Shown: piece after piece, positions 11,174 to 26,727 of the stretch
How positions within the stretch are numbered: the first letter of the stretch is position 1
How the letters are laid out: each line of letters starts with the position of its first letter
DNA from: a virus
Length of the DNA stretch: 64,000 bases
Direction: 5' to 3' (one strand)
IMG/VR virus record: IMGVR_UViG_3300034101_003554
Span: 32,001 to 96,000 of that record
Position numbers and translations under genes: made by a program
Notes under the pieces: model-generated
The model's database searches: none
What the model was told of the DNA's origin: nothing
The model's input: only the letters and a program-made list of their open reading frames with translations

Positions 11174-11177
11174 TGGG

Positions 11178-11243
11178 AGAGTAAGGAAAGGTCGTAGGTA
11201 GCACTGTCCACAACCAGCCTTAAACGTGGTGGATACTTACTCT
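11178..11243 (+). ncRNA. candidate small structured RNA
   Basis: AGAGTAAG/CTTACTCT closing stem, TCCAC/GTGGA inner stem, GC-rich, between promoter and tRNA-Phe. Confidence 0.4.
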
Positions 11244-11250
11244 AAATTAT

Positions 11251-11326
11251 GGTGATGTTGCCAAGTTGGTCAAGGCGAACGACTGAAAATCGTTTTATAC
11301 CAGTTCGAATCTGGTCATCACCACCA
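11251..11326 (+). tRNA. tRNA-Phe(GAA)
   Basis: AACGA-CTGAAAA-TCGTT; CCA encoded. Confidence 0.9.
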
Positions 11327-11337
11327 AACAATTATAT

Positions 11338-11412
11338 GTGGTATGTACCCCAACTGGTAGAGGGGCATCATTGTGGATGATGTATGTGTGGGTTCAAATC
11401 CCATCATACCAC
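11338..11412 (+). tRNA. tRNA-His(GTG)
   Basis: CATCA-TTGTGGA-TGATG; G-1:C73. Confidence 0.9.
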
Positions 11413-11422
11413 CAAACAAATT

Positions 11423-11509
11423 GGAAAGTTAAGCTCGGCGGCCCGAGTCTACGTCTTGAAAACGATAGGTACAATTGTATTGTATGGGGATCGACACCTC
11501 AACTTTCCG
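11423..11509 (+). tRNA. tRNA-Ser(TGA), atypical D/T loops
   Basis: GGAAAGT/ACTTTCC, CTTGAAA loop, long V arm, G73. Confidence 0.75.
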
Positions 11510-11519
11510 CAACAAATTT

Positions 11520-11592
11520 AGTCCCATAGTTCAATGGATTAGAACCGAACAATACGAATGTTCAAATACCTGTTCGAATCGGGTTGGGACTA
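11520..11592 (+). tRNA. tRNA-Arg(ACG)
   Basis: GAACA-ATACGAA-TGTTC. Confidence 0.85.
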
Positions 11593-11601
11593 CAAACAAT
11601 T

Positions 11602-11688
11602 GGAGGATAAAGTAATCAGGGTCGTTACCACCGCCTGCTAAGCGAGTGGCACCAAGTATGGTGTGGGGTTCGTGTCCTCTGTCCTCCG
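11602..11688 (+). tRNA. tRNA-Ser(GCT)
   Basis: GGAGGAT/GTCCTCC, CTGCTAA loop, long V arm. Confidence 0.8.
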
Positions 11689-11705
11689 CAGAAAAATATT
11701 AATAA

Positions 11706-11771
11706 GATTAGAGCAGTTGAGTTCATAACTCAAAGGAATGCAGACAGTGGAGATGAGCGACCCACCTAATC
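11706..11771 (+). ncRNA. D-arm-less tRNA-like element with CAT anticodon stem-loop
   Basis: GATTAG/CTAATC closing stem; TTGAG-TTCATAA-CTCAA; GTGG/CCAC hairpin. Confidence 0.4.
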
Positions 11772-11801
11772 ATATTAAATGAAGAAAAATATTCCAAAGT
11801 G

Positions 11802-11833
11802 TTTGGAAATTAGAAAATGAAATCGTAATTTTG
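11802..11833 (+). promoter_or_regulatory. Bacteroidetes housekeeping-sigma promoter
   Basis: TTTG-N20-TAATTTTG. Confidence 0.75.
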
Positions 11834-11842
11834 TGATACAAT

Positions 11843-11972
11843 AGTCCTGTGGCGAAAGTTAAGGGTAGAGTGAAGATTGAATGTTCAGACACTCCTTAAT
11901 ACTAGGATTGGAGCGAAAGGTCTAACATAAACAATATGTAGCTTAATACAAGTTCGAATCTTGTCAGGACTA
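11843..11972 (+). ncRNA. tRNA-scaffold element 1 (130 nt)
   Basis: AGTCCTG/CAGGACT acceptor + A, ACAAG-TTCGAAT-CTTGT T arm, no anticodon arm. Confidence 0.75.
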
Positions 11973-11994
11973 CTAAAAATTAAAAACTAAAATT

Positions 11995-12171
11995 ATGGAC
12001 ACACATTATTGGGTAAGATTTGAGATTAGAATTGAAACTATCAACAATAGTTTAAACGCTGATGAACAAAAAGAAATCTTTGACTATATAAAATCAAGAA
12101 TTGACGGTAGAGATGACATAGATAGACCTAAAAAGTTGGATTGTTGTTTTGTCAATATGAGAAAATTTTAG
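11995..12171 (+). CDS. small hypothetical protein (58 aa)
   Basis: ORF with A-rich leader directly after element 1. Confidence 0.6.
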   Translation: MDTHYWVRFEIRIETINNSLNADEQKEIFDYIKSRIDGRDDIDRPKKLDCCFVNMRKF

Positions 12172-12184
12172 ATAAGTTAAATAT

Positions 12185-12295
12185 AGTCCTATGGCGGAAT
12201 TGGTAGACGCACTCCCCCTAGATAGGGAGAATATTGTTTCGACGCAATTAACCAGGTGATGGCATCTAATACAGGTTCGAATCCTGTCAGGACTA
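12185..12295 (+). ncRNA. tRNA-scaffold element 2 (111 nt)
   Basis: Leu-type D arm GGCGGAATTGGTAGACGC, canonical T arm, aberrant 8-nt loop and long insert. Confidence 0.75.
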
Positions 12296-12320
12296 CAAAA
12301 ATAAAAATAAAATTAGGAAT

Positions 12321-12554
12321 ATGAAAAAGTCACTTGAAGAAGTAAAGAAATTGAATACGAAAAATCTTCTACGTTTTTATAGAGCAGAACGTATAAGATT
12401 TTATGGTAGTGGATACTGGTGTAGTTGTGGGTGTGGTGAAATGATATGGGAAGCAAGAACATCACAAGCAGATATGGAACAAAAATATAATGAACATAAA
12501 GATTTTTTGAATGTAATTAAAGCAGAACTCAATACAAGAGAACATATTTCTTAA
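12321..12554 (+). CDS. hypothetical protein
   Basis: 77 aa with CSCGC; follows element 2. Confidence 0.65.
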   Translation: MKKSLEEVKKLNTKNLLRFYRAERIRFYGSGYWCSCGCGEMIWEARTSQADMEQKYNEHKDFLNVIKAELNTREHIS

Positions 12555-12575
12555 AATTGTTTGCGAAACTTTTAA

Positions 12576-12696
12576 AGTCTTGTGGCGGAAGTGATAGACG
12601 CTATTGTAAAAGGGTTCACATCCCAAAGATGAGCAAGTGTAATTGCTACATAGATAATGTCATATTATCATACAGGTTCGAATCCTGTCAGGACTA
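12576..12696 (+). ncRNA. tRNA-scaffold element 3 (121 nt)
   Basis: AGTCTTG..GGCGGAAGTGATAGACGC..ACAGGTTCGAATCCTGTCAGGACTA. Confidence 0.75.
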
Positions 12697-12721
12697 TTTT
12701 TTAACTTTAAAACAAATTATT

Positions 12722-12976
12722 ATGAAATCTTTACAAGAACTTTACGCAAACACACCAATTCAAGTGATTGTTGATTTCTATATTCAAAATAACACAGAAG
12801 TATGCCTACTCGAAGGTAAAATTCATAACGGTGACTTGTCTGCAATTGAAGAATTAGAAACCCTTGTTGCCAAAATCCTAAATTATGAGATTGAGAATTT
12901 TGAAGGTAAAGAGTGTTTTGAATCAGCATACCTGAAAAGAATGAAAATGTTGGTTAGAACTAAACAAATTCTTTAA
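12722..12976 (+). CDS. hypothetical protein
   Basis: ATG 12722 (MKSLQELY) after element 3. Confidence 0.65.
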   Translation: MKSLQELYANTPIQVIVDFYIQNNTEVCLLEGKIHNGDLSAIEELETLVAKILNYEIENFEGKECFESAYLKRMKMLVRTKQIL

Positions 12977-12992
12977 AAAAAAATTAAAACTT

Positions 12993-13204
12993 AGTCCTGT
13001 GGCGGAATTGGTAGACGCACATTAGCTGAGTGATGCAATAAGCAAGTACCCCTAATTAAAAGCCTAACGGATTTTACCCACTAGAACAATAAAAATCCTC
13101 AGATTGGGTTTAGGGTCTTACCAAACTCTCCGAAAACAGAGTAGGAGCTGTTAATAACCAAGATGGTAAGTGTTTATTTACAGGTTCGAATCCTGTCAGG
13201 ACTA
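12993..13204 (+). ncRNA. tRNA-scaffold element 4 (212 nt)
   Basis: same ends, about 160-nt insert. Confidence 0.75.
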
Positions 13205-13218
13205 CAAAAAATTAAAAA

Positions 13219-13368
13219 ATGTTAGTAATTATTGGTCTTTTATTTTTGATAATTGGAATCTTATTCTTAATTTTGTCTTACAAAACAAAGAACTCAGACT
13301 TGTTTATAGTTGGAATTATATTTCTAATTGTTCTTTTGTTTGGATTTATATATGGTTTAATAATATAG
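13219..13368 (+). CDS. small two-helix membrane protein (49 aa)
   Basis: MLVIIGLLFLIIGILFLILSYK...; follows element 4. Confidence 0.55.
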   Translation: MLVIIGLLFLIIGILFLILSYKTKNSDLFIVGIIFLIVLLFGFIYGLII

Positions 13369-13436
13369 GTGTAGCTCAGAGGTAGAGTGCTAGTTTTGGG
13401 AACTAGTGGTCGCTGGTTCAATCCCAGTCACCTATA
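13365..13436 (+). tRNA. tRNA-Pro(TGG)
   Basis: CTAGT-TTTGGGA-ACTAG. Confidence 0.9.
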
Positions 13437-13449
13437 CAAGATTTTTAAA

Positions 13450-13523
13450 GGTTCTATAGCTCAATTGGTTAGAGCACCCGACTCATAATCGGTAGGTTCT
13501 AGGTTCAAGTCCTAGTGGAACCA
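13450..13523 (+). tRNA. tRNA(CAT), probably Ile2
   Basis: CCGA-CTCATAA-TCGG, resembles lysidine-type tRNA-Ile2. Confidence 0.85.
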
Positions 13524-13538
13524 CAACAATTTTAACAA

Positions 13539-13613
13539 TGTCCTGTAACTCAGTTGGTTTAGAGTATTCGTCTGATACGCGAAAAGTCGTGAGTTCGAGC
13601 CTCACCAGGACAA
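13539..13613 (+). tRNA. tRNA-Ile(GAT)
   Basis: TTCGT-CTGATAC-GCGAA. Confidence 0.9.
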
Positions 13614-13621
13614 CAACAAAT

Positions 13622-13694
13622 GTCTCAGTAGCTCAGTGGTAGTAGCCCTTGACTGTTAATCAAGTTGTCGTAGGTTCGAATCCTACCTGGGACG
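13622..13694 (+). tRNA. tRNA-Asn(GTT)
   Basis: CTTGA-CTGTTAA-TCAAG. Confidence 0.9.
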
Positions 13695-13710
13695 CAAATT
13701 TTAATAAATT

Positions 13711-13938
13711 ATGGTTAATGTAAAAATTGGTGAATTTAAGGTTGGTGATAAGTTGTTTATTGATTATAGTGAAAATAATCCAAACAATAAACACATCGAA
13801 ATTAGAGCAATTGTGGATATGGAAGTGGTGATTTATTTGGATGAAAAAAATAACTACCATATGGAACCAATTCATTACTTCAATGTGTTATGTAGATGTA
13901 ACTCACTTAAAAAAATAACAAATGAAACGGACAATTAG
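13711..13938 (+). CDS. hypothetical protein
   Basis: 75 aa ORF. Confidence 0.6.
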   Translation: MVNVKIGEFKVGDKLFIDYSENNPNNKHIEIRAIVDMEVVIYLDEKNNYHMEPIHYFNVLCRCNSLKKITNETDN

Positions 13939-14077
13939 AAAACCAAGTTCATCCAAGTTTTATGAAATGCTTAGAAATAAGTACAACAACCACATTAAGA
14001 AACAAGAAAATGAAATGGAAGATTCTACAAATTAGATTCCAACCTAAAAAATTTAATTAACAATATATAATTTTCAT

Positions 14078-14587
14078 ATGAAAAAAGAGTTTTTATTTAA
14101 TGATAACATTATTGATTTTGAATTTGACGAAGTAATAGATAAAAAAATAAATGTTAAGGTATTTCACTATTTCAGTAATAATCTTTTATTTGAAAAAATT
14201 GAAGATAGAATAATTTGTCTTAAAGGTATTGGTAAATTATTCTTTCAAGAAGGATTCCCAATTTCATTATCTATTTCAGTATTAAAAGAACAAGGGGTTG
14301 AGGTTAGTATATTACACGTTGCTGATGAATGTTTAAAAAATGGGTGGTCACCAATAACAACATATAATAAATTAAAATCTGACTTTGAAGAAGATATTGA
14401 CAAAGAAAATCATTATGATTTACATTTATTAAAAAAATTTTGTGAATCAAATTATGAAGACCAAAGAGAAATGATATTTGAATATCTGTTTAAATGCAAA
14501 ACTGATGATGTCAGAAATAAAAAAAATGAAAATCCAATAGACTGGTTACAATTACTTGTAACTAGTGGGGCTAAAAATAAACTTTAA
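14078..14587 (+). CDS. hypothetical protein with AlaRS-like helix motif
   Basis: KLFFQEGFPISLSISVLKEQGVEV resembles the AlaRS KLYDTYGFPxDLT motif. Confidence 0.6.
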   Translation: MKKEFLFNDNIIDFEFDEVIDKKINVKVFHYFSNNLLFEKIEDRIICLKGIGKLFFQEGFPISLSISVLKEQGVEVSILHVADECLKNGWSPITTYNKLKSDFEEDIDKENHYDLHLLKKFCESNYEDQREMIFEYLFKCKTDDVRNKKNENPIDWLQLLVTSGAKNKL

Positions 14588-14596
14588 CAAGAAAAT

Positions 14597-14671
14597 GACC
14601 CTGTAGCTTAGCTGGTTTAAAGCACAATACTTTTAATATTGGGAGCGGGAGTTCAAATCTCCCCAGGGTCA
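14597..14671 (+). tRNA. tRNA-Lys(TTT)
   Basis: CAATA-CTTTTAA-TATTG. Confidence 0.9.
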
Positions 14672-14868
14672 CAACACAATAAGTTACGAAAGGTGTTATT
14701 AGAAAATAGTAGACATATTTTTTGACATTATGGGTCTGAAAATAAAAATTAAGGATGGTACGAAAGTTCAGGACTTTGACTGTAAACTAGGAAAGGTAAC
14801 TAAGATACGCGGTCTCGGTTCTATTGGAGTACAATTATCAGTATAGCCCAATCATTCTTTTATAAATA

Positions 14869-14953
14869 GTCCTTATGGTGTAATGGTTAAACATCCCACT
14901 CTTACAAAGTGGAGACGAGAAGTATAATCCTAGTTCGAATCTAGGTAAGGACA
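14869..14953 (+). tRNA. tRNA-Val(TAC) with long variable region
   Basis: CCACT-CTTACAA-AGTGG; 16-nt variable region. Confidence 0.8.
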
Positions 14954-14982
14954 CATTAAATAATTTTTAAATTACAAAAACG

Positions 14983-15231
14983 ATGAAAAAAATATTATTC
15001 CTTGGATTAATTTCTGTATTATTCCTTAGTTGTCAAAGAGAAGGTATAGAAGAACTAAAAACAGATAATGCGAATTATAACGTTGAGCTTCTATTTAAAG
15101 TTGATGGATGTAAGGTCTATCGATTTTGGGATAAAGGATACAAGTATTTTACAACTTGTGATGGATCCGTGACTCATAAACTAAGTGGAAAACACCCCAA
15201 AGATTTGGGAATACAGACAATCGTGAAATAA
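14983..15231 (+). CDS. putative lipoprotein
   Basis: signal peptide with lipobox FLSC. Confidence 0.7.
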   Translation: MKKILFLGLISVLFLSCQREGIEELKTDNANYNVELLFKVDGCKVYRFWDKGYKYFTTCDGSVTHKLSGKHPKDLGIQTIVK

Positions 15232-15467
15232 AGATTTGAACAATTAAGGGACCGAGCCTGCCTACAATTTCGGTGTGAGGTGCTAGTAGGTAATTGTTCT
15301 TTATGTTATAATAGTACCACGAGGCATCCCATAAGAACTGCTCACTACTGTGGTCTTGTTGCTTGTAAACGAATAGCCCAAGGTATAAGTTATGAAGCTT
15401 AACTCAACCTATCCCCCACTGACGAGTGGGGTGAAGTTGGGGGATTTCATATATTTATAGTAAAAAA

Positions 15468-15926
15468 ATGATGAAAGATTTAAGAATACGTATTAAAACA
15501 ATTTTAAAAGAAGAATTTGAAAATTATACTATAGTATATCGTGGTATTGGAGATAGAATTAACGCTACCTATGGTAAAGTATCTGATGATGGAATGGGTG
15601 TATTTTGGACAGATAATTTAACTATGGCCAAATGGTTTGCTGGACTTATTGATTATTCTGTTGATACTTATAGATATGAAAATATAAAAGGTTCTAAGGG
15701 TAAGATTTTAACTAAAGAAATAAAATTTGAAAATCCATATGTTGTTAATTCAGATGATGAAGATTATGACTCATTTCAAGTTTATATGGATGAAATATAC
15801 AAATTCGGTGGGGTTGACAAATATAAAGAAATGTTAATTGAAAAAAATTATGATGGTATCATATTAAGAAATTGTTCAACAAATTACTATGAAAATGGAA
15901 CTTATGATATCTTTATTGAGTTATAG
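15468..15926 (+). CDS. possible ADP-ribosyltransferase-fold protein
   Basis: VYRG, GVFWTDN..A..FA, YDGIIL motifs; late motif upstream. Confidence 0.5.
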   Translation: MMKDLRIRIKTILKEEFENYTIVYRGIGDRINATYGKVSDDGMGVFWTDNLTMAKWFAGLIDYSVDTYRYENIKGSKGKILTKEIKFENPYVVNSDDEDYDSFQVYMDEIYKFGGVDKYKEMLIEKNYDGIILRNCSTNYYENGTYDIFIEL

Positions 15927-15948
15927 GTAATATAAAAAGAAACAATAG

Positions 15949-16033
15949 GGTTGGGTGGCCGAGTTGGTTAAGGCACTAGTCTGCAAAACTATCGAATGAA
16001 AATTCATCGTGGGTTCGAATCCCTCCCCAACCT
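15949..16033 (+). tRNA. tRNA-Cys(GCA) with long variable arm
   Basis: TAGT-CTGCAAA-ACTA; U73; ATGAA/TTCAT extra arm. Confidence 0.85.
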
Positions 16034-16042
16034 CAAACAAAT

Positions 16043-16115
16043 GTAGATGTAGCTCAATTGGTAGAGTTGCTGATTCCAAACCAGCCGGTTGGGGGTTCGA
16101 GTCCCTCCATCTATG
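16043..16115 (+). tRNA. tRNA-Trp(CCA)
   Basis: GCTG-ATTCCAAAC-CAGC; G73. Confidence 0.9.
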
Positions 16116-16146
16116 CAAATTTTATCAACAATTAAAACTATTTATT

Positions 16147-17105: not shown

Positions 17106-17489
17106 ATGTTTTTATATAAAGTAGAAGTTAAAATAGCAACTAATCCTGAAATGGACTTAGGTTTATTCACAAAAGAATTTATCCCAAAAGGAACTATAGT
17201 TTGGGAATTCGTGGAAGGTGTGGATATTAAAATGGATGAAACGACATTCAATAAATTGAACGAAGCTCAAAAAGAATTTTTTGAAAAATATGGGTGGAAG
17301 GAAGATGATGGGTTTTATTATTCCTCTTGTGACTTAACTAACTTTATTAATCATAGTTACAATCCAAATTTAGATGTTGTGGGGGAAATAATAATTTCAA
17401 ATAAAGATATCCAAATTGGGGAAGAATTATTTGAAGATTATAGTCAATTTGATACTGAGTTTCATACTTATAAAAATGAATTTATTTAA
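17106..17489 (+). CDS. SET-domain protein
   Basis: GLFT..FIPKGT, FINHSYNPN, DIQIGEELFEDY. Confidence 0.85.
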   Translation: MFLYKVEVKIATNPEMDLGLFTKEFIPKGTIVWEFVEGVDIKMDETTFNKLNEAQKEFFEKYGWKEDDGFYYSSCDLTNFINHSYNPNLDVVGEIIISNKDIQIGEELFEDYSQFDTEFHTYKNEFI

Positions 17490-18272: not shown

Positions 18273-18590
18273 ATGAAAAAGAAAAAAAATATATTTACAA
18301 AAGAAATTAAGGTAGCCGATGCTAAGACATCTGTTAGTGAATTAATAAGAGAAACATTAATTAACTTCAGTTGGGGTTTCTTTGGTAATTCAATAGTTGT
18401 ATTTATGGCCAAAGAAATTGATCTTGCCGTATTGATTAATTTTTTATTATATTATATCTTAATATCTTATATTGTTAATCGTGCGAAATATGAAAGTAAT
18501 TTTGGTAAATTCATTGTTTTACCTGGTTCAGCGGCATTAGGAGCATTCACAGGATATAAAGTAGCACAAATTATTTCACAATTTTTGTAA
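18273..18590 (+). CDS. membrane protein
   Basis: three hydrophobic segments. Confidence 0.7.
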   Translation: MKKKKNIFTKEIKVADAKTSVSELIRETLINFSWGFFGNSIVVFMAKEIDLAVLINFLLYYILISYIVNRAKYESNFGKFIVLPGSAALGAFTGYKVAQIISQFL

Positions 18591-18617: not shown

Positions 18618-19106
18618 ATGAAACTTAATGAAGAAATAAAACGAATAAAAGGTTTAATGTTGGAAAACTCCGACCCTTTCACTATTTCAACAGCGGGTAG
18701 TATTAATATAACACCTGGTCTTCACATATCTATTAATAATGGTGAAGTTAAGATGGGTCATATTAATATGATTGATTTTGATAATGGAAAACATTATGAT
18801 TACTACCTACCAAGACTTTTGTATAATGTTAATGAATATTGTAAATCAAATTGTACTGAAAATTTATTCAATAATAATAACTCAATATATCTACACGATT
18901 TAGAAATTTTTAAACCTTACAGAGGTAAAGGTCTAAGTAATCGTCTAATGGACGAATGTCATAAATTAGGAAAAAATATGGGAGTTGACTACATTATTCT
19001 AATAACTGAATGTAATAATTATGTAGCCCAAAACTTATATAAAAAATATGGGTACGAAATTTATAGTTCAGATGGTATTGAAGACTTATTTTACAAAAAA
19101 ATTTAA
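18618..19106 (+). CDS. GNAT acetyltransferase
   Basis: LEIFKPYRGKGLS, N..AQNLYKKYGY. Confidence 0.85.
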   Translation: MKLNEEIKRIKGLMLENSDPFTISTAGSINITPGLHISINNGEVKMGHINMIDFDNGKHYDYYLPRLLYNVNEYCKSNCTENLFNNNNSIYLHDLEIFKPYRGKGLSNRLMDECHKLGKNMGVDYIILITECNNYVAQNLYKKYGYEIYSSDGIEDLFYKKI

Positions 19107-19201
19107 AATAAAGACTCAACAACTTGATTAATTTTTGTAACAAACTTGACCTTTTGTATTATATCGTTATATTTAATAAAAAAATAGTAAAAACTTCACA
19201 A

Positions 19202-19273
19202 ATGAAACACAATCTCTATATGGACTTAACAACTAGAGCTGAGGGTAGAAATCCTCGGATGGAGATGGTATGA
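19202..19273 (+). CDS. putative leader peptide (23 aa) MKHNLYMDLTTRAEGRNPRMEMV
   Basis: short ORF followed by terminator and tRNA cluster. Confidence 0.5.
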   Translation: MKHNLYMDLTTRAEGRNPRMEMV

Positions 19274-19300
19274 TATAAGGTTTTAATTGTTAATAAAATC

Positions 19301-19339
19301 AAATCCATCTTCCTAAAAAAAAGATGGATTTTTTTTTTT
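19301..19339 (+). terminator. intrinsic terminator / attenuator 2
   Basis: AAATCCATCTT/AAGATGGATTT + U-tract. Confidence 0.8.
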
Positions 19340-19346
19340 GAGAGTG

Positions 19347-19378
19347 TTTGAAAATGTGAATTAGTAATTGTATCTTTG
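19347..19378 (+). promoter_or_regulatory. Bacteroidetes housekeeping-sigma promoter
   Basis: TTTG-N20-TATCTTTG. Confidence 0.7.
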
Positions 19379-19410
19379 TGATGTTCATTGAAATTGAGGG
19401 AAAAATATTT

Positions 19411-19485
19411 GGTACCATAGTTTAACGGCAAGAATATAAGGTTGTCACTCTTATGGTAGGGGTTCGATTCCCCTTGGTACCGCCA
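19411..19485 (+). tRNA. tRNA-Asp(GTC)
   Basis: TTGTCAC loop; G73; CCA encoded. Confidence 0.9.
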
Positions 19486-19559
19486 AAAAAAAGTTTTAAA
19501 AGTTGGAACTAAATGAGATGAAGGTTGGTTTATAATAATGTAACTTAAAAAAATAGATT

Positions 19560-19706
19560 ATGACAAACTTTATGATAAACTTTATTATTCTTGCTATTTT
19601 TATAATGCTTTTGGGTTTTATTGGTAACTATATCATAAAAAAATATCCAGATTCTTGGGTAGCAAAATGGTGGGATGATATGACTGATATTGGTCATTGG
19701 TGGTAA
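19560..19706 (+). CDS. small membrane protein (48 aa)
   Basis: ORF after GGAACT promoter copy 2. Confidence 0.6.
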   Translation: MTNFMINFIILAIFIMLLGFIGNYIIKKYPDSWVAKWWDDMTDIGHWW

Positions 19707-19890
19707 ATTAAAATAATATCTATGTCACGAGATTAAGATGTGACTTACGTTCTAAGGAGTTTACTTATTGTCAATTAGGGCGGACGAAGGCAACATAAGT
19801 TATATTATGGTGACTTGATATTCACCATAACGAATACAAGATATCAAAAAGAGAAGTGGAGAGTTCTTATTCAAAACTTCTCTTTATTTT

Positions 19891-20173
19891 GCCTAGGTGG
19901 TGTAATGGTAGCCACGCAAGACTTAAAAATTTGAGTGCTATTGGTGAAAACCTTTAAGTAGAACTCCGTAAATTCGGTGAAGCCTTTAAAATGGTAATAC
20001 CGAGCCAAGTTCAAGAAATTGAAAAGGTGTAGAGACTAGACACGGAGAACCTAAGTCGAAAGATATGGTTAAGGTATAGTCCAGACCACAAACTGAAAAG
20101 GTGGTGAAAACCATAGTGGTAAGAAAATCTTGTGACCAGTAAGGTCGTGCGGGTTCGAGTCCCGCCCTGGGTA
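19891..20173 (+). tRNA. tRNA-Leu(TAA) interrupted by a group I intron
   Basis: exons 19891-19924 and 20124-20173 rebuild CAAGA-CTTAAAA-TCTTG and a Leu V arm. Confidence 0.9.
19925..20123 (+). mobile_element. group I intron (199 nt, no ORF)
   Basis: P1 ACTT/GAGT with U-G pair; P AAATTCGGTGAA, Q AATACCGAGC, R GTAGAGACTA, S AAGGTATAGTCC; terminal G. Confidence 0.9.
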
Positions 20174-20412
20174 CAAAAAAAAAGTTTAAAAAAGATTTGG
20201 AATTAAGAAAATCAAATCGTAATTTTGTGAGACAATAGTCAGGTGGCGAAATGGTAGACGCACATCCGCAGGTGATTTAGTTTGAGGATACAGCGGCAGT
20301 CGAGGTCACAAACATATACAAATATAGGTTCGAATCCTATCCTGACTACAAAAAAAAAGTTTAAAAAAGATTTGGAATTAAGAAAATGAAATCGTAATTT
20401 TGTGACACAATA
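20174..20412 (+). repeat. about 63-bp near-identical promoter-containing direct repeat (about 20174-20237 and 20349-20412)
   Basis: AAAAAGTTTAAAAAAGATTTGGAATTAAGAAAAT(C/G)AAATCGTAATTTTGTGA(G/C)ACAATA flanking element 5. Confidence 0.9.
20237..20348 (+). ncRNA. tRNA-scaffold element 5 (112 nt)
   Basis: AGTCAGG/CCTGACT (covaried acceptor), GGCGAAATGGTAGACGC, ATAGG-TTCGAAT-CCTAT. Confidence 0.75.
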
Positions 20413-20417
20413 AAAAC

Positions 20418-20490
20418 GCACCATTCGACAAGGGGTATAAGTCACCTCCCTTTCACGGAGGAGTCACGGGTTCGAATCCCGTATGGTGTA
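20418..20490 (+). tRNA. tRNA-Glu(TTC)
   Basis: CCTCC-CTTTCAC-GGAGG. Confidence 0.9.
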
Positions 20491-20542
20491 CAAATCTCAG
20501 AAGTAATTAATCTGGGGCTGAGAGGTTCGAAACTCACGGAAA

Positions 20543-20642
20543 TGATTATGGTGTAGGCGCACGGAAAGATAAAGTATGAGAATGGTAAGTACCCATTAAA
20601 GAAATTGACATCAGGATTAAGGTTCGAATCCTTATTAATCAA
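20543..20642 (+). ncRNA. divergent tRNA-scaffold-like element
   Basis: TGATTA/TAATCA ends, TAAGG-TTCGAAT-CCTTA T arm, no anticodon loop. Confidence 0.45.
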
Positions 20643-20651
20643 CAAACATTA

Positions 20652-20723
20652 TGCAAGGAAGGGCAACGGTCGTCCGCTAGGCTCATAACCTAGAAGCTGT
20701 GGGTTCGATTCCCACCCTTGCGT
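20652..20723 (+). tRNA. tRNA-Met(CAT)
   Basis: CTAGG-CTCATAA-CCTAG; atypical D arm. Confidence 0.75.
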
Positions 20724-20732
20724 CAAACAAAT

Positions 20733-20807
20733 TGCAAGATGGACTGGAGGTGGTTCCAGCTCGGTCTCATAAGCCGTACCATGTGGGTTCGACTCCCACT
20801 CTTGCAA
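20733..20807 (+). tRNA. tRNA-Met(CAT)
   Basis: CGGT-CTCATAA-GCCG. Confidence 0.75.
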
Positions 20808-20813
20808 CTAAAC

Positions 20814-21048
20814 AACTTAACTAATGGCGGTAACTGATTAGTAAAATAATCGAACTAAAGCAATCTAATGGAAGTTGAGTAGCGTCTAATATAGTAGTTT
20901 TATAATACTTGCACTACAAATGGGTATTAAATTAACAGGTTGGGAATCTGACTACATAATATTAGTGTTAGGTGGACTTAAATAAGTGAACACCTGTGTA
21001 ACGGGTTGAAAACTTTACGATTGAAATGTCGACCATTTGGGTTAAGTT
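20814..21048 (+). ncRNA. candidate structured RNA (about 235 nt)
   Basis: AACTTAAC/GTTAAGTT closing stem between tRNA-Met and tRNA-Tyr; no ORF. Confidence 0.45.
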
Positions 21049-21079
21049 CTATTTGTAGTAGAACTTGTAAGTTGTAAAA

Positions 21080-21165
21080 GGGTGTCTATCCAAATTGGTG
21101 AAGGAAGCTGTCTGTAAAACAGTTGCCACGTGCTAAACTTGGGGGTTCGAATCCCTCGGCACCCA
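21080..21165 (+). tRNA. tRNA-Tyr(GTA)
   Basis: GCTGT-CTGTAAA-ACAGT, long V arm. Confidence 0.9.
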
Positions 21166-21169
21166 CAAA

Positions 21170-21372
21170 AGAAATGAAACCTTACATAGGATGGATTAGC
21201 ACCATTGAAAGAGAACTTGGCTCTCATAGGATCGCAACCTAAATCGAGAGTAATAATGACCCAAGTTGTTATGTAGGAGACCCTGCTCTACTGTGCACGG
21301 TATCAGGCTATGGGGAACAAACCATCGTAAAACTCTTGCCCATATAATACTTATGGAAGGACTTTCATTTCT
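21170..21372 (+). ncRNA. candidate structured RNA (about 200 nt)
   Basis: AGAAATGAAA/TTTCATTTCT closing stem, TACATA/TATGTA and AACTTGG/CCAAGTT inner stems. Confidence 0.5.
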
Positions 21373-21377
21373 AATTT

Positions 21378-21452
21378 GCAGTAATAGCTCAATGGTAGAG
21401 TTCTTGTCTTCCAAACAAGATGTTGCGAGTTCGAGTCTCGCTTACTGCTCCA
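21378..21452 (+). tRNA. tRNA-Gly(TCC)
   Basis: CTTGT-CTTCCAA-ACAAG; CCA encoded. Confidence 0.9.
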
Positions 21453-21468
21453 AATTTAAAAATTCATT

Positions 21469-21681
21469 ATGAATCAGTCTGAATTTAGAAATCTTAGAAC
21501 TGGGGATAAAATCCATATTAAGTCTCGTGATGGTTTATATACCTTCTTAACAAAAGACTTTATAACTGGTGAAATTCATATAACTTGTAAAAGATGGAAA
21601 TATGAAGATTCCCCAATCAGAGTAACAAGTTTTGATGATTTCAAATGTTTGGCTGGTGGATTATGGAGAAAAATTATGTAA
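21469..21681 (+). CDS. hypothetical protein
   Basis: 70 aa ORF. Confidence 0.6.
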   Translation: MNQSEFRNLRTGDKIHIKSRDGLYTFLTKDFITGEIHITCKRWKYEDSPIRVTSFDDFKCLAGGLWRKIM

Positions 21682-21754
21682 TAGGAGAAAGTAAGTCGGT
21701 TGGTGTATAGCTTCCTTACGTCTAAAATTTAAGCACAATTACATAATACAAAAA

Positions 21755-21831
21755 GGGGGATTAGCTCATTCAGCAAGAGCACTTGTTTTGCACACAAGAG
21801 GTGGTCGGAGCAAAGCCGACATCCTCCACCA
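21755..21831 (+). tRNA. tRNA-Ala(TGC)
   Basis: G3:U70, CTTGT-TTTGCAC-ACAAG, atypical T loop AGCAAAG, CCA encoded. Confidence 0.85.
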
Positions 21832-21860
21832 AAAAATAAACGTTGTTTTAAATTTAATTT

Positions 21861-22466
21861 ATGAAAAAATTTTTAGTATTTTTAGTATTATTTGTATTAT
21901 TGACATCTTGGTCATATACACCCCCACGTAGGGTATTATATATCGGTGATAGTTTAACCTGTGCTCCTGGTGGGTGGCAGGATCAAGTTTCAAAACATTT
22001 TGGATATCAAAGTCTCAATCTAGCAAAAGGTGGTGTTAGAACGGATTATATGAGAACGACAATGAATGCTTGTTTTAAAAAAGATTCAGCTTTCTCTCAG
22101 GTATTCATTTATGGTGGATGTAACGATGCTTTTTCTATGGTAGATTTACAAGGGGCGGTGAATAACATTCAGATGATGGTTGATAGTTGTAATAGAAGAG
22201 GAATTGAACCTATTGTAATTGTGGGTTTTAATCCAGCTCAAGTAACAACAAAGACTGTGTATGACGCAGAAACAACCAAGAGATGTGTTGGAAGATACAT
22301 TGAGTTTCAAAAACTAATGGTTAAAGAAAAAACTGGATTAAAGAATTGTAAAATAATTCCTATGGACACTACAATGTTTTATAGTGATACTTGGGATGGA
22401 ATTCACTTCGCACCTTCTGGACATAAGAAATTTTCTACTTGGGTTATAAATAATATGGAAAAATGA
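21861..22466 (+). CDS. secreted SGNH/GDSL hydrolase
   Basis: signal peptide; GDSL, GGCND, DGIH; similar to the N-terminus of 355..1932. Confidence 0.85.
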   Translation: MKKFLVFLVLFVLLTSWSYTPPRRVLYIGDSLTCAPGGWQDQVSKHFGYQSLNLAKGGVRTDYMRTTMNACFKKDSAFSQVFIYGGCNDAFSMVDLQGAVNNIQMMVDSCNRRGIEPIVIVGFNPAQVTTKTVYDAETTKRCVGRYIEFQKLMVKEKTGLKNCKIIPMDTTMFYSDTWDGIHFAPSGHKKFSTWVINNMEK

Positions 22467-22714
22467 AAAAAATATTTTGGTTTTCAACTTTAATCACTAT
22501 CTTTGTATCCTGTTACAAACACCCCACAATAGAACCTGGTGATATTGTTAAGAAGTGTGTGATTGATACGATGTATATTACAGAATCTCCATCTACAATT
22601 GAATTTGGTAAAAGATATAATTATAAAACCGATTGTGATGAATTGATAATGACAAGAAGAAGTGATGTATATAAAATAGGGGATACAATAACCTATGTTT
22701 ATAAAAGAAGATAA
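22463..22714 (+). CDS. putative lipoprotein
   Basis: lipobox FVSC. Confidence 0.65.
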   Translation: MKKIFWFSTLITIFVSCYKHPTIEPGDIVKKCVIDTMYITESPSTIEFGKRYNYKTDCDELIMTRRSDVYKIGDTITYVYKRR

Positions 22715-22720
22715 TTATTT

Positions 22721-22806
22721 GCCGTTTTCGCATAGTGGTTGATTGCACTGGATTTGTAACCCAGTTCCGTTAGGACACGTCAGTTCGAATCTGACAAACG
22801 GCTCCA
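22721..22806 (+). tRNA. tRNA-Thr(TGT) with long variable arm
   Basis: CTGG..TTTGTAA..CCAG; TCC-GTTA-GGA extra arm; CCA encoded. Confidence 0.85.
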
Positions 22807-23142
22807 AAAATCCCAATTGATGTAGATAGATTGGGTGGTCTGCAAGCCTCAATTGCCGTATTTGGTTAATATGTTAACCTAACCACGTATTATGGTTAAT
22901 ATGTCACTATAACTAGGGGTCGCCAAGACCAGATTGTTGGCAGTTTACACGAGATAGTCACTCGCATTTTCTACAAAAGGCAAAAAACACTAGTCCGTTT
23001 CTACTGGATGAGGGGGTATTGAAAAAGTGTAGCTAACTTGGAAGATACCCCAAAATTTTTTAAAAAAAAACATAGGAAAAAGTGAATAATTCAGGAAGAA
23101 CAACTATCTTTGTCTTATTAATCACTGAAACACATAATCACA

Positions 23143-23373
23143 ATGGCTAAAGAGAAAAAAACAATCCAAGTTGAGTTATTAAAAGAATTCGCAAACAACT
23201 ATTTGGCTATTCCAATGGTTTCTATCCAAGAAAAAATGGGCATTATCACAATGATTGAAAAGGTTCTACATGAATCCAATGCTTATAAAGGCTATATGTA
23301 TTTGAAACTTGAAGAAAACAATACCCCACCAGCATTTGAAACTGAGGGGTGGGTAACAAGAAAATATTTTTAG
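23143..23373 (+). CDS. hypothetical protein
   Basis: ORF after TAtcTTTG promoter. Confidence 0.65.
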   Translation: MAKEKKTIQVELLKEFANNYLAIPMVSIQEKMGIITMIEKVLHESNAYKGYMYLKLEENNTPPAFETEGWVTRKYF

Positions 23374-23479
23374 TGGTTGTGACACCTAATAATTCACAAG
23401 TAGTGGTTGACACTTAGAATGTTACCTGACTTTAAGGTTTGGAATAGAAAAACCGAAAACTTTTAAAACTTTTAAAACT

Positions 23480-23752
23480 TTGAATATTATGGCACTTATT
23501 TATGTAATCTTGGATAGCAACGATAGAATTCCTATTCTAACTGCAAGTAGTATTGAAAAAGCTGAATTACTTTTGAATCAATATATGGGTGTTGAAGGTC
23601 CTATATTTGATGAAAGTGTTGAGTATATAGGTTTTGAACCATTTGATGACAGAGGTTATTACACAATTTATGAAGGCGAATACAAATATAAGACAGAAGA
23701 TGGTGAACAAAGATTCATGAGATATTGTATGGGATTAGATAGTTTAGATTAA
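23480..23752 (+). CDS. hypothetical protein
   Basis: 90 aa ORF. Confidence 0.6.
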   Translation: MNIMALIYVILDSNDRIPILTASSIEKAELLLNQYMGVEGPIFDESVEYIGFEPFDDRGYYTIYEGEYKYKTEDGEQRFMRYCMGLDSLD

Positions 23753-23822
23753 AAATTATGGTAAAGATTGTAATTTTGTGAACTATTTTTTATTCTAAAT
23801 ATTTATTATTAAAAATAAAACT

Positions 23823-24272
23823 ATGAGTAAAGAAATGAGGAAATTTATAGACGCATTCAAAAAATTCAATTTGAATGAAAGTGTTACTAATGTATATAAA
23901 CGAGATGATGATGATGATGATTCACCTATTATAATTGAAGGTGAAATAGAATATGATGATGATGTATTTTATTACAAAGTCGAGTATCACGATGATTTCG
24001 GATATAAAGTATTTGAAGTAACATCAGAAGAAAATGAAGATGTTGAAGATTTTTTTGATGATGATGAATATGAAGAATTATTAGGTTTAATAATTGATGA
24101 TGTAAAATCAGAAAGATATAAAGAAAAAGAAATATCCACTAAGTGGGTTGCTATTGATACCAGAAATGGTAGAGTAATACACAGAAGTAAAAATCATATT
24201 GATAGAAAATTTGTTGCTGAATTGTATGATATACCAAAATCTTTTATAGAAATTAAAATAGAGACAAGGTAA
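23823..24272 (+). CDS. acidic hypothetical protein
   Basis: ATATTTAT upstream. Confidence 0.65.
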   Translation: MSKEMRKFIDAFKKFNLNESVTNVYKRDDDDDDSPIIIEGEIEYDDDVFYYKVEYHDDFGYKVFEVTSEENEDVEDFFDDDEYEELLGLIIDDVKSERYKEKEISTKWVAIDTRNGRVIHRSKNHIDRKFVAELYDIPKSFIEIKIETR

Positions 24273-24310
24273 AAATTATTACACATAACATAAATATATA
24301 TGTAACTTTT

Positions 24311-24452
24311 AGTCCTATGGCGGAAGTAGACGCTGTGGTGCAAATCCACTTAGCCCAAAGGGGGTTACAATATAGAGGTTCAATTCCTCTACTGGCACGG
24401 ATGTGTCAGATTGGCGTTGTTGTAAATACAGGTTCGAATCCTGTCAGGACTA
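24311..24452 (+). ncRNA. tRNA-scaffold element 6 (142 nt)
   Basis: conserved ends; insert holds extra T-arm-like hairpins. Confidence 0.75.
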
Positions 24453-24487
24453 CAAAATAAATTTTTTAACAAACTTAAATTTTAATT

Positions 24488-24655
24488 ATGAGTGATTTAG
24501 AAACAAAACTTCAAATTTTACAAGAGCAATTAAAACTCAACAATGAAAAACTTGAACATATGAGAGATGAAATAAAGTTTAGTAAAACTTTTATTTATTT
24601 TGATTTAGCATTGTTGGGATTAATTTTGTTATACGTAATTTTGTTTGTAATTTAA
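24488..24655 (+). CDS. small coiled-coil/membrane protein (55 aa)
   Basis: ORF directly after element 6. Confidence 0.6.
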   Translation: MSDLETKLQILQEQLKLNNEKLEHMRDEIKFSKTFIYFDLALLGLILLYVILFVI

Positions 24656-24665
24656 AGTGGAATTT

Positions 24666-24737
24666 AGTCCTGTAGCCAAATTGGTAAAGGCCTCATGTAT
24701 GGATGAGAGAGTATGGGTTCGAATCCTGTCGGGACTA
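24666..24737 (+). ncRNA. tRNA-scaffold element 7 (72 nt, 6-nt pseudo-anticodon loop)
   Basis: AGTCCTG/CGGGACT; CTCAT-GTATGG-ATGAG. Confidence 0.7.
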
Positions 24738-24831
24738 TTAAAAAATAATTCTAACCTTTGGAACTAAATGATAGGTAAAAAGGTTTATAGTTATGTAAGT
24801 TGAATATTAACACACAAAAAAATTAAAAATT

Positions 24832-25002
24832 ATGAATATAGAAGATGTAAAAAAATTAATTAAGGAAAACCTTAAAATTAGTGTAGAAACTCTCACTAGA
24901 GGTAGTGAATGTTCGTATAATGAAAAAACATATGTTAAATTAATTTTTCTTGATGAAGTTATTTCAGAAACAGAAATTGAAAAACTTAGTGAAGATAGAT
25001 AA
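24832..25002 (+). CDS. small hypothetical protein (56 aa)
   Basis: ORF after GGAACT promoter copy 3. Confidence 0.6.
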   Translation: MNIEDVKKLIKENLKISVETLTRGSECSYNEKTYVKLIFLDEVISETEIEKLSEDR

Positions 25003-25042
25003 TAATTTTATGTTTTATAACATAAATATATATGTAACTTTT

Positions 25043-25187
25043 AGTCCTATGGCGGAAGTAGACGCTGTGAGAGTATGTGTATGGCTCTGTTAGGTTCGTG
25101 TAACGCTATTAACGGGAATTAGTAGATGATTTCAAAGATAAAAGCACATACAAAATCTACGTATAGGTTCAAATCCTATTAGGACTA
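25043..25187 (+). ncRNA. tRNA-scaffold element 8 (145 nt)
   Basis: AGTCCTA/TAGGACT; ATAGG-TTCAAAT-CCTAT. Confidence 0.75.
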
Positions 25188-25194
25188 CAACATT

Positions 25195-25282
25195 TAAAAC
25201 ATCAACTCGTAAAGAAAATGATGGCAAAGAGGTTCAGATTAAAGGTAACGGGCTCCTACCTACCCTGAACAAGATGTTTTAA
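25195..25282 (+). ncRNA. candidate structured RNA
   Basis: TTAAAACATC/GATGTTTTAA, GTTCAG/CTGAAC, AGGTA/TACCT nested stems. Confidence 0.45.
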
Positions 25283-25289
25283 TTAATAT

Positions 25290-25403
25290 GGTCAAGTGGC
25301 GGAATGGAAGACGCTAAGTAAGATGGTGTACGTTTGTCCCATAAGAAAGACCGATGCAACAGAAATGTGAAGGGTCGTATAGGTTCAAATCCTATCTTGA
25401 CTA
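25290..25403 (+). ncRNA. tRNA-scaffold element 9 (114 nt)
   Basis: GGTCAAG/CTTGACT; GGCGGAATGGAAGACGC; T arm. Confidence 0.75.
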
Positions 25404-25415
25404 CAATATATATTA

Positions 25416-25488
25416 GCACCCATAGCTCAACTGGAAGAGCAATTGCCTTCTAAGCAATAGGTTACAGGTTCGAATCCTGTTGGGTGTA
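25416..25488 (+). tRNA. tRNA-Arg(TCT)
   Basis: ATTGC-CTTCTAA-GCAAT. Confidence 0.9.
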
Positions 25489-25547
25489 CTAAATTTTAAA
25501 GAAGTACAAGAGTTCTATTTCTATGTAAATTGATAACTTAAAATCTA

Positions 25548-25931
25548 ACGGCTTTCAAAAACGCAGAATATAGTTTATTAAAATTCCGACCTTCAGTGGT
25601 ATTGGATGAACAAGTAAATGTTGGTATTTTAATCTTTCTTAAAGAAGATTCAAAACTACAATTCATCTATCCAAATTCATTGACACGATTAACATATCTT
25701 TTTCCAAATATTGATTTAAATTGTATTAAAGAAAAATTGGAGAATTTTAAAAGTCGTGTTAATCAATTCAACACAGATGGATTAACAAATTTTGAGTCCA
25801 TTAGAGACGAACATTTGCTTATATTGGATGATAATAGTTTTTTCTTCAGTAATACAATTAATACCAAATACACCAATAGTGATGGTATTCTAAAACATTA
25901 CACTGAAAAATATTTTTTATCTTACAAATAA
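25548..25931 (+). CDS. DUF3037-like protein
   Basis: YSLLKFRPSVVLDEQVNVGIL motif; frame opens at ACG 25548. Confidence 0.6.
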   Translation, partial: TAFKNAEYSLLKFRPSVVLDEQVNVGILIFLKEDSKLQFIYPNSLTRLTYLFPNIDLNCIKEKLENFKSRVNQFNTDGLTNFESIRDEHLLILDDNSFFFSNTINTKYTNSDGILKHYTEKYFLSYK

Positions 25932-25957
25932 ATCATTATATTATTTAAAAAAAAATT

Positions 25958-26143
25958 ATGAAATTTAAAGTAGGAGACAAAGTTTACAAACCAAAAGGTT
26001 ACAAATTCCCAGGTATAGTTGTTGCGGTATTCCAAACCACATCTGGTGAAACAAGAATTGTTGCAGAATTAATTGACAATGGTATGTTGCACATATTTAG
26101 TGAGAGTCAGCTAGAACTTGATAATGATGAAAAAAATGATTAA
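25958..26143 (+). CDS. small SH3-like hypothetical protein
   Basis: MKFKVGDKV..GYKFPG..LHIF. Confidence 0.65.
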   Translation: MKFKVGDKVYKPKGYKFPGIVVAVFQTTSGETRIVAELIDNGMLHIFSESQLELDNDEKND

Positions 26144-26384
26144 TATGAAAAACACACCTCTCCAAAATGTTATAGACAGAGTTGAAAAACTTGCTAGAGA
26201 AGCTAAAGAAAATACAGAGGAAAAAAGAAAATTAAACATAGTTATTTCTTATCTTTGGGATGAGTTACAAAATGAAAGATATGTAATGTCTGAAATTTAT
26301 GAAAAAAGTAAAAAAGAAGATAATGAAGTAACTGGAAAAATGTGGATTGAAAAAAATTTTATAGACTATCAAAAATTTTTATAA
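26118..26384 (+). CDS. hypothetical protein
   Basis: ORF track. Confidence 0.55.
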   Translation: MIMMKKMINMKNTPLQNVIDRVEKLAREAKENTEEKRKLNIVISYLWDELQNERYVMSEIYEKSKKEDNEVTGKMWIEKNFIDYQKFL

Positions 26385-26621
26385 TGAAAAACAAAAATCA
26401 AGGTAAAACAAATGACCAAAGAGAATTTGCAATGTATATGTTTTCAACAGCAATGCTTGGACTTATTGTATTGGGATTGGTTTATCTAATCAAATTTGGA
26501 TTTAACCTTTAAAAAAAACATACATAGAGAAAACTGGTATGTATGTTGTAAAGTAAAATCTTACTTACCTCCGACTATTTTGATAGTCATACGGAAGTTC
26601 CCAGATAAAAGATTTATTTAT

Positions 26622-26704
26622 GCCTGAGTGGCGGAATTGGCAAACGCAATTGATTTAGGATCAATCGTTATAATGACTTGTGGGTTCGAGTCCCACCTTG
26701 GGTA
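26622..26704 (+). tRNA. tRNA-Leu(TAG)
   Basis: ATTGA-TTTAGGA-TCAAT, V arm, A73. Confidence 0.9.
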
Positions 26705-26727
26705 CTAACATTTTAAAAAAAGAAATT

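Follow-up and report, generated by a model that had tools for sequence, protein, structure and literature searches.

A candidate leader-peptide attenuator at the head of a tRNA gene cluster in an uncultured lake phage

The window analysed here, a 64-kb stretch of DNA corresponding to bases 32001-96000 of a 141-kb IMG/VR virus record (IMGVR_UViG_3300034101_003554), comes from an uncultured AT-rich lake phage; the record has a G+C content of 29% and a completeness of 48% as estimated by CheckV. About 24 tRNA genes, serving all 20 amino acids, are arrayed in two plus-strand clusters separated by 3.3 kb of protein genes, along with one further gene whose anticodon is unreadable. The amino acids are split nearly cleanly between the two clusters, with Met and Arg alone being common to both. 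The subject of this study, which we term unit 2, is a small promoter-ORF-terminator element standing before cluster 2 (ORF, open reading frame); a comparable element, unit 1 (10596-10765), stands before cluster 1. The features to which the argument refers are as follows:

10783-16116, plus strand: tRNA cluster 1, with Gln, Phe, His, Arg-ACG, Ser-GCT, Pro, a CAT tRNA, Ile, Asn, Lys, Val, Cys and Trp
19146-19173, plus strand: promoter P1, of the sigma-70 type (TTGACC, 16-nt spacer, TATATT), a 10/12 match in the promoter scan with a predicted start at ~19180
19174-19201, plus strand: A-rich 5′ leader without a Shine-Dalgarno sequence
19202-19273, plus strand: leader ORF of 23 codons, MKHNLYMDLTTRAEGRNPRMEMV, with 4 Met; ATG at 19202 and TGA at 19271-19273
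19213-19219, plus strand: segment 1 (UCUCUAU), whose predicted partner in the ribosome-free RNA is 19259-19265 in both minimum free energy (MFE) and consensus folds
19214-19249, plus strand: leader codons 5-16, a run of cluster-2 amino acids, LYMDLTTRAEGR
19239-19258, plus strand: inner hairpin CUGAGGGU-AGAA-AUCCUCGG, within the ORF and seen in the folds
19257-19268, plus strand: segment 2, the candidate antiterminator strand GGAUGGAGAUGG, able to pair with 19304-19312 in two registers
19274-19300, plus strand: variable spacer from the stop codon to the terminator
19301-19339, plus strand: intrinsic terminator, with an 11-bp stem (19301-19311/19321-19331), a 9-nt loop (19312-19320) and 11 T (19329-19339)
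19348-19376, plus strand: promoter P2, sigma-70-like (TTGAAA, 17-nt spacer, TATCTT), with a predicted start at ~19383
19382-19406, plus strand: boxA-like head motif, beginning TGTTCATTGAAAT (19382-19394) and preceding tRNA-Asp
19411-19485, plus strand: tRNA-Asp(GTC), the first gene of cluster 2 (ARAGORN, Rfam)
19411-26705, plus strand: tRNA cluster 2, with Asp, Leu-TAA (bearing a group I intron), Glu, two CAT tRNAs, Tyr, Gly, Ala, Thr, Arg-TCT and Leu-TAG
26622-26705, plus strand: tRNA-Leu(TAG), the last gene of cluster 2

An earlier, sequence-only reading of this DNA had described a 23-codon ORF with four Met that ends in TGA, an eight-base stretch near its end capable of pairing with the 5′ arm of a terminator, and a boxA-like motif and tRNA-Asp following that terminator; each of these parts is present where it had been placed. 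The last codons of the ORF, GGAGATGG (19261-19268), are complementary to CCATCTTC (19305-19312) over 8 bp with one G-U, the pairing at the RNA level being GGAGAUGG/CCAUCUUC. Segment 2 mimics the 3′ arm of the terminator and would be covered by a ribosome sitting at the stop codon. The terminator hairpin has an energy of about -10.5 to -11 kcal/mol, and good plus-strand intrinsic terminators are rare in this region: between 10,000 and 27,000 there are only two (~10720-10753 and 19301-19339), both standing right before the first tRNA of a cluster. The boxA-like call is likewise borne out, in that the 24-nt motif GTTCNTTGANATYGNKGGNAAAAT occurs in the window only at 10755-10778 and 19383-19406 (0.1 chance matches expected), in each case 5 nt before the first tRNA of its cluster. 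Two elements had not been listed, namely P1, found also at the start of the distantly orthologous units of L113 and G009 (unit B), and the codon match in full, considered below. The missing Shine-Dalgarno sequence before the leader ORF is normal in this phage, since GGAG is found upstream of 0/122 of its long ORFs, which have A-rich upstream regions instead. An Rfam scan of 19180-19340 returned no family, leader families included, beyond one chance snoRNA hit (E=0.12). A weak resemblance of 19265-19308 to positions 112540-112584 of the record, in the same sense and within a coding gene, was set aside as chance.

The leader names the amino acids of the tRNAs that follow it. All 9/9 cluster-2 amino acids are present in it (Asp, Leu, Glu, Met, Tyr, Gly, Ala, Thr and Arg), and codons 5-16 form an unbroken run drawn from this set: Leu, Tyr, Met, Asp, Leu, Thr, Thr, Arg, Ala, Glu, Gly, Arg. 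Judged against random peptides with this phage's amino-acid usage, the null for the coverage tests, 16/22 codons fall in the set (background 0.48; p=0.018) and the coverage of 9/9 has p=0.038, with a joint p=0.004. For the 12-codon run p is about 0.001, whether the comparison is with peptides drawn at proteome frequencies or with the ORF bases shuffled at matched composition. Among the 455 small ORFs in the six frames of the 141-kb record, the unit 2 leader is the sole one to combine the run with the coverage match. For the window, an ORF-by-cluster contingency test gives p=0.003, and p=0.023 (Fisher) with Met and Arg omitted. As regards the CAT tRNA of cluster 1, the 'Ile(TAT)' call of a relative does not establish a tRNA-Ile2 identity, and Met was handled as ambiguous.

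The same correspondence recurs in units that share no sequence with unit 2. The claim that unit 1 repeats its architecture in unrelated sequence extends to its logic: the unit-1 leader (10596-10691) covers 12/12 of the cluster-1 set (joint p=0.00016), and in both units the antiterminator strand lies at the end of the ORF. They differ downstream, in that the stretch from terminator to boxA-like motif contains a promoter, P2, in unit 2 and none in unit 1. In the diverged relative L025 (reverse strand, upstream of tRNA-Gln), about half the residues of the unit-1 leader are altered, yet on our reading the cluster-1 set is still fully covered; Phe, Lys, Arg and Val have disappeared from one position and reappeared elsewhere. 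The distant phage G009, whose gene X (a gene discussed below) is 54% identical, has two sequence-unrelated units of the same layout. Its leader 1 (35 codons) contains 16/16 amino acids of the following cluster and no Asp, Glu or Gly (joint p=1e-5); its leader 2 contains Gly, Gly, Asp and Glu, from which tRNAs for Gly, Asp and Glu were predicted and then found, the second cluster as read from fetched DNA comprising Leu, Phe, Met, Gly, Glu and Asp. The ORF-by-cluster contrast in G009 has p=0.004.

We extended the comparison by scanning IMG/VR for a U-run abutting a boxA-like string, retaining those matches that had a terminator hairpin and a tRNA no more than 200 nt away, and defining the leader as the longest ORF whose end lay 90 nt or less from the hairpin, regardless of its composition. 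Together with the four earlier units, this yielded 28 units in 18 sequence families. The leader covers the full tRNA set in 15/18 matched pairs as against 22% of mismatched pairs, and the mean z is 1.82 for matched and -0.19 for mismatched pairs, a value reached by 0/20,000 permutations (p<5e-5). Moreover, the surveyed leaders favour codons readable by the anticodons of their own cluster under strict wobble (110/157 vs 86 expected on the codon usage of the window phage; z=4.2), a preference seen in neither of the window units.

One arrangement in this material deserves separate description. In the 16.6-kb phage contig L113, two leader/terminator/boxA-like units (10889-11002 and 12495-12566) stand back to back, separated by nothing but tRNAs. 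Of these, the second is distantly orthologous to unit 2 (MKNLNNILNARTEGDNPTVTEMV); its leader lacks Tyr, and the tRNA-Tyr of this contig is in the first cluster. In the window phage, by contrast, tRNA-Tyr is in cluster 2 and leader 2 has a Tyr codon.

When the phage record collection was searched for near and distant DNA matches, no relatives of unit 2 came up, and only tRNA and intron pieces were matched. Exact-pattern scans supplied 14 IMG/VR contigs and 12 metagenome contigs which, with L056 (reached via its neighbouring gene), make up 27 loci; the distant branch of unit 2 is constituted by L113, L084, L109, L141 and L160, and L182, a chance match to a short search pattern, was left out of the alignment. 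The 27 loci present 12 variants of the ORF, with the ATG, frame and stop kept in all. TGA has become TAA in two lineages, L060/L062 have an in-frame loss of one codon, more than 20 substitutions have occurred overall, and codons 10-13 constitute a hot spot (TTRA, TTGA, TAGT, TIAT, TITT, TTT). In the most diverged groups (the L022 group and L025), whose upstream 105-aa gene is 56-63% identical at third codon positions, only 3/72 nt of the ORF are changed, and this conserved block spans the ATG to the stop codon. Around it, the 5′ untranslated region has 5-7/28 changes (including a 3-nt deletion) and the post-stop spacer 8-9/27, i.e., 18-33% with the promoter spacer included. P1 in these groups keeps its hexamers (TTGACC/TTGACA, TATATT) around a spacer with 4-5/16 changes and a length of 16-17 nt. 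The terminator stems are invariant in close relatives and essentially unchanged in the diverged groups, and two compensatory pairs (U-A to C-G) in the stem separate unit 2 from the L113 branch. Hence, judging from these alignments, both promoter hexamers, the ATG-to-stop block and the terminator are under selection. Because synonymous sites are conserved too, the constraint appears to act on the RNA or on codon identity and not on the peptide alone, which in turn argues against a plain micro-protein gene.

These data also bear on whether the locus might be an ordinary operon boundary, with the hairpin ending an upstream operon (cluster 1 and the genes to 19106), the next operon starting at P2, and the ORF being a chance frame. 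A terminator followed by a promoter is indeed the commonest phage arrangement, the only two plus-strand terminators between 10,000 and 27,000 each lie at a block junction, and an 8-bp match to the terminator arm turns up in 6-10% of shuffled or random upstream sequences; yet a chance frame would hardly be expected to survive in 12 variants in the face of so many substitutions and an in-frame deletion, to coincide from ATG to stop with a conserved block, and to have a conserved promoter directly before it. Chance is likewise disfavoured by the match in composition, replicated as it is in other phages, and we regard a mere operon boundary as highly improbable.

The antiterminator pairing taken alone is only suggestive, because of its chance frequency of 6-10%, and its weight comes from comparison. 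Over 13 distinct sequences, antiterminator cells are paired in 95% of cases versus 35-65% in slid controls. L065 shows a double change (G-C to A-U) at 19261:19312, and in the L113 branch the pairing is kept, with its G-U now a G-C, while the terminator stem has covaried. On these alignments the comparison is best read as evidence of retention and not as proof of covariation. Further, in 4/4 sequence-unrelated units (unit 2, unit 1 and the two units of G009), the best partner of the terminator 5′ arm stops 1-18 nt short of the ORF end, the pairing strengths against shuffles having p = 0.15, 0.065, 0.069 and 0.010; in 17/18 of the surveyed units it ends from 30 nt before to 7 nt after the ORF end.

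In the predicted fold of the whole unit (MFE and consensus), 19213-19219 pairs with 19259-19265 around the inner hairpin 19239-19258, with the terminator following; z-scores of -2.3 to -2.6 were obtained for the fold. Where relatives differ, the changes either lie in the predicted loop or affect a single side of a helix and for the most part preserve the pair, those in the inner hairpin being G-U to G-C, G-C to G-U and U-G to U-A, with one end pair lost in L060/L062. Segment 1 is invariant among relatives, so that covariation is unobtainable for it. The inner hairpin might possibly act as a pause hairpin. When the equilibrium folding of the window unit was modelled with a masked ribosome, the antiterminator reached 0.2-0.6 for stalls at codons 1-11 and approximately 0 for later codons, at the stop codon or with no ribosome; a switch of this kind was matched by 5/120 shuffles (p about 0.04). 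A nascent-transcript version of the model gave a modest effect only.

Downstream of the terminator, the sequence-only reading had cautioned that a promoter in this position could bypass it, and the caution proved apt: P2 is kept in nearly all relatives as the promoter of a leaderless gene cassette. The gene concerned, gene X, encodes a 159-aa protein (phrog_3754, function unassigned) with conserved Cys and His and in nearly all relatives lies after the terminator and before tRNA-Asp, e.g.:

L003, 3464-3940, minus strand: gene X
L022, 6554-7030, plus strand: gene X
Window, 19376-19383: corresponding position, gene X not present

Its promoter, TTG(G/A)(G/A)A-16/17-TA(A/T)CTT, is followed by 6 bases and then the ATG, a spacing by which it is taken to serve a leaderless message, and it goes along with gene X in distant phages where the gene lies elsewhere. 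A second, similar promoter-like copy is found at the 3′ end of gene X, ahead of the boxA-like motif. Gene X is missing from the window phage and from L005, which have one fused promoter copy (P2) left; it was apparently deleted by recombination between the two promoter-like copies, with P2 as the relic. Promoters of the P2 type are infrequent in the genome. The terminator U-run abuts the boxA-like motif, with no promoter between them, in unit 1, G009 unit B and L113, and the tRNAs of these units would therefore be transcribed only through the terminator. We take the promoter-free abutting layout, as represented by the L113 branch and G009 unit B, to be the ancestral one.

The boxA-like motif recurs ahead of tRNA or non-coding RNA arrays in relatives and in distant phages, being conserved before the first tRNA in the relatives, and at least 120 IMG/VR contigs contain a U-run with the core of the motif directly after it. 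The core looks like the rrn boxA (E. coli TGCTCTTTAACAA; Bacillus/Mycoplasma-type TGTTCTTTGAAAA). As in the leaders of rrn-type (NusB/NusE) boxA antitermination, a TGTTC(T/A)TTGA(C/A)AT-like motif comes directly after the promoter/terminator and before a long untranslated RNA array; in contrast to them, phage tRNA clusters and not rRNA follow, and position 6 varies (T/A/G). The assignment to boxA is putative. As the motif lies downstream, it cannot itself act on the terminator.

The retention of P2 lends some substance to the proposal that unit 2 is an independent short transcription unit, in which P1 would drive a ~160-nt structured small RNA or a 23-aa micro-protein, with cluster 2 transcribed from P2 only and no effect in cis. 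P1 and the terminator do bracket a compact conserved unit; a structural constraint would fit the synonymous conservation, the fold z-scores and the location of variation in the loop; P2 is conserved and correctly placed; and gene X parts the unit from the tRNAs in most relatives. What such a unit leaves unexplained is the mirroring of the tRNA set by the leader (p=0.004 here; p<5e-5 over 18 units), the mimic of the terminator arm in the last codons of the ORF, and the promoter-free abutment of related units to the boxA-like motif and tRNAs. Nor is there a match to an Rfam family, and a pure micro-protein gene would drift synonymously. Hence, we deem a separate small RNA or micro-protein unlikely.

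We propose instead, with a probability of roughly 0.7, that unit 2 is a ribosome-mediated (leader-peptide) transcription attenuator gating read-through into tRNA cluster 2. The earlier contention that the shared architecture reflects a real mechanism is strengthened by the retention of the hexamers, ORF and terminator while the spacers drift, by the placement of the antiterminator in the last codons, and by a leader repertoire that tracks the tRNAs; from these we infer that the ORF is translated, that ribosomes stall in it and that the RNA switches accordingly. Briefly, the mechanism might operate thus. Transcripts from P1, and those from the upstream operon, would carry the 23-codon leader ORF. 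A ribosome reaching the stop would cover GGAGAUGG (19261-19268), allowing the terminator hairpin (19301-19331) with its U-run to form and transcription to end. A ribosome stalled in codons 5-16 would hold segment 1 and leave GGAGAUGG free; this could then pair with the emerging terminator 5′ arm, such that the polymerase continues past the boxA-like element into the tRNA genes. The net effect would be a negative feedback, in which a shortage of any tRNA encoded in the block causes the block to be transcribed. In the window phage, the relic promoter P2 would add an unregulated input.

Several observations weigh against this attenuator. First, the unit 2 match is one of amino acids and not of codons: 3/9 choice codons are readable under strict wobble vs 4.6 expected, and no tRNA of the phage is cognate to the leader codons CGG and CTC. 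Each amino acid occurs only once or twice in the leader, without runs like those of the his, phe and leu leaders. Among the variants, Ile (ATA) appears inside the run in three and Ala is lost in two; the L022 group keeps the Ala codon, yet no tRNA-Ala is typed downstream of the unit in its contigs. Second, compensatory changes in the helix between segments 1 and 2 or in the inner hairpin number zero among close relatives, as the block is invariant, and a shuffle control for the antiterminator covariation was not significant. The modelled masked-ribosome switch is gone in several near-identical relatives differing in U-run length or by one codon, and we accordingly give the folding models little weight. 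Third, gene X separates the unit from the tRNAs in nearly all relatives. P2 is probably a real promoter that in part bypasses the terminator, providing a basal, unregulated input to cluster 2, and in the window phage the cluster may be largely constitutive.

It is the second group of these observations that gives room to a related possibility, namely that the leader senses tRNA supply by a route other than the hairpin switch, e.g., through uncoupling of ribosome and polymerase that exposes a Rho or nuclease entry site, or through control of transcript stability or processing, with the intrinsic terminator being a constitutive partial stop only. The match between leader and tRNA set is strong and the evidence for a structural switch weaker, the modelling not being robust and the covariation sparse, and the boxA-like element suggests that Rho-dependent termination matters for untranslated clusters. 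We nevertheless consider such a route quite unlikely, given that the terminator-arm mimic recurs at the ORF end in unrelated units and persists while the terminator stem covaries, both of which point to a competition between antiterminator and terminator.

The surroundings of unit 2 present some further features. In all relatives the unit directly adjoins the 105-aa membrane-protein gene (18273-18590 in the window); the GNAT acetyltransferase gene at 18618-19106, directly upstream of P1, is an insertion private to the window phage, with no relatives found in IMG/VR. A SET-domain protein (Pfam PF00856, E=2e-12) is encoded at 17106-17489, between the tRNA clusters. Within cluster 2, a group I intron (Rfam RF00028, 62.3 bits, 19914-20105) splits the anticodon loop of tRNA-Leu(UAA) (19891-20173). 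The relative L003 has an intron-less tRNA-Leu(UAA) at the same place (reverse strand, ~300 nt past tRNA-Asp), and the intron is thus a presence/absence polymorphism among close phages. Between tRNA-Tyr and tRNA-Gly, a stretch at 21272-21332 matches the freshwater-1 RNA family at 58.9 bits, below its gathering score of 72. Scattered over both clusters are tRNA-like genes with large inserts (starts at ~12185, 12576, 12993, 20237 and 24311), which ARAGORN calls as intron-containing and which have Rfam tRNA scores of 34-41 bits. Finally, L024 (reverse strand) has, ~4.8 kb past the leader ORF, a tRNA with the anticodon TTA, detected at a relaxed ARAGORN threshold; it would read UAA and is a possible suppressor tRNA.

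Among known systems, unit 2 is closest to the attenuators of amino-acid operons (trpL, hisL, leuL, thrL, ilvL and pheL; the Trp, His, Leu and Thr leaders of Rfam), and within these to the multivalent thr and ilv leaders. The likeness includes a promoter, an ORF of 14-35 codons, an intrinsic terminator and an ORF-distal strand pairing with the terminator 5′ arm, as well as the placement of the regulatory codons upstream of the ribosome-covered strand and the naming of the regulated function by the leader amino acids. Unlike in those attenuators, the genes controlled would be tRNA genes, phage-encoded and preceded by a boxA-like element, with no sequence or Rfam similarity, and the leader devotes one or two codons apiece to nine amino acids instead of having runs of one to three kinds. 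Since the downstream genes are tRNAs, and not amino-acid biosynthesis or synthetase genes as in the described members, unit 2 would constitute a variant outside the described leader families. Attenuation by a leader peptide of a component of translation, governed by the supply of charged tRNA, is exemplified by the E. coli pheST attenuator with its pheM leader; there, however, the target is a synthetase and the leader has a run of codons for a single amino acid, Phe, whereas unit 2 precedes tRNA genes and addresses many amino acids at once. The T-box riboswitches share with it a terminator/antiterminator decision that reports on the supply or charging of a specific tRNA. In contrast to unit 2, the T-box binds uncharged tRNA directly and has no ORF; unit 2 would sense via the translating ribosome, with one leader serving many tRNAs. 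A full-text literature search retrieved no published account of tRNA genes under leader-peptide attenuation, and we know of no such report.

The survey inclines us, on balance, to the view that unit 2 belongs to a widespread and hitherto undescribed class of phage elements, in which the leader lists the amino acids of the following tRNAs and the cluster is transcribed on demand when ribosomes stall. If so, these elements would supply an annotation rule by which such switches can be recognized, with the leader predicting the downstream tRNAs. They would also be relevant to the regulation of tRNA sets in large phages, next to the current ideas of codon-usage compensation and escape from tRNA-targeting defences. 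Large phages could then sense, and make up for, a mismatch or degradation of the host tRNA pool or its cleavage by anticodon nucleases, through a direct feedback loop from decoding demand to tRNA supply that would be readable in the sequence of a tiny ORF.

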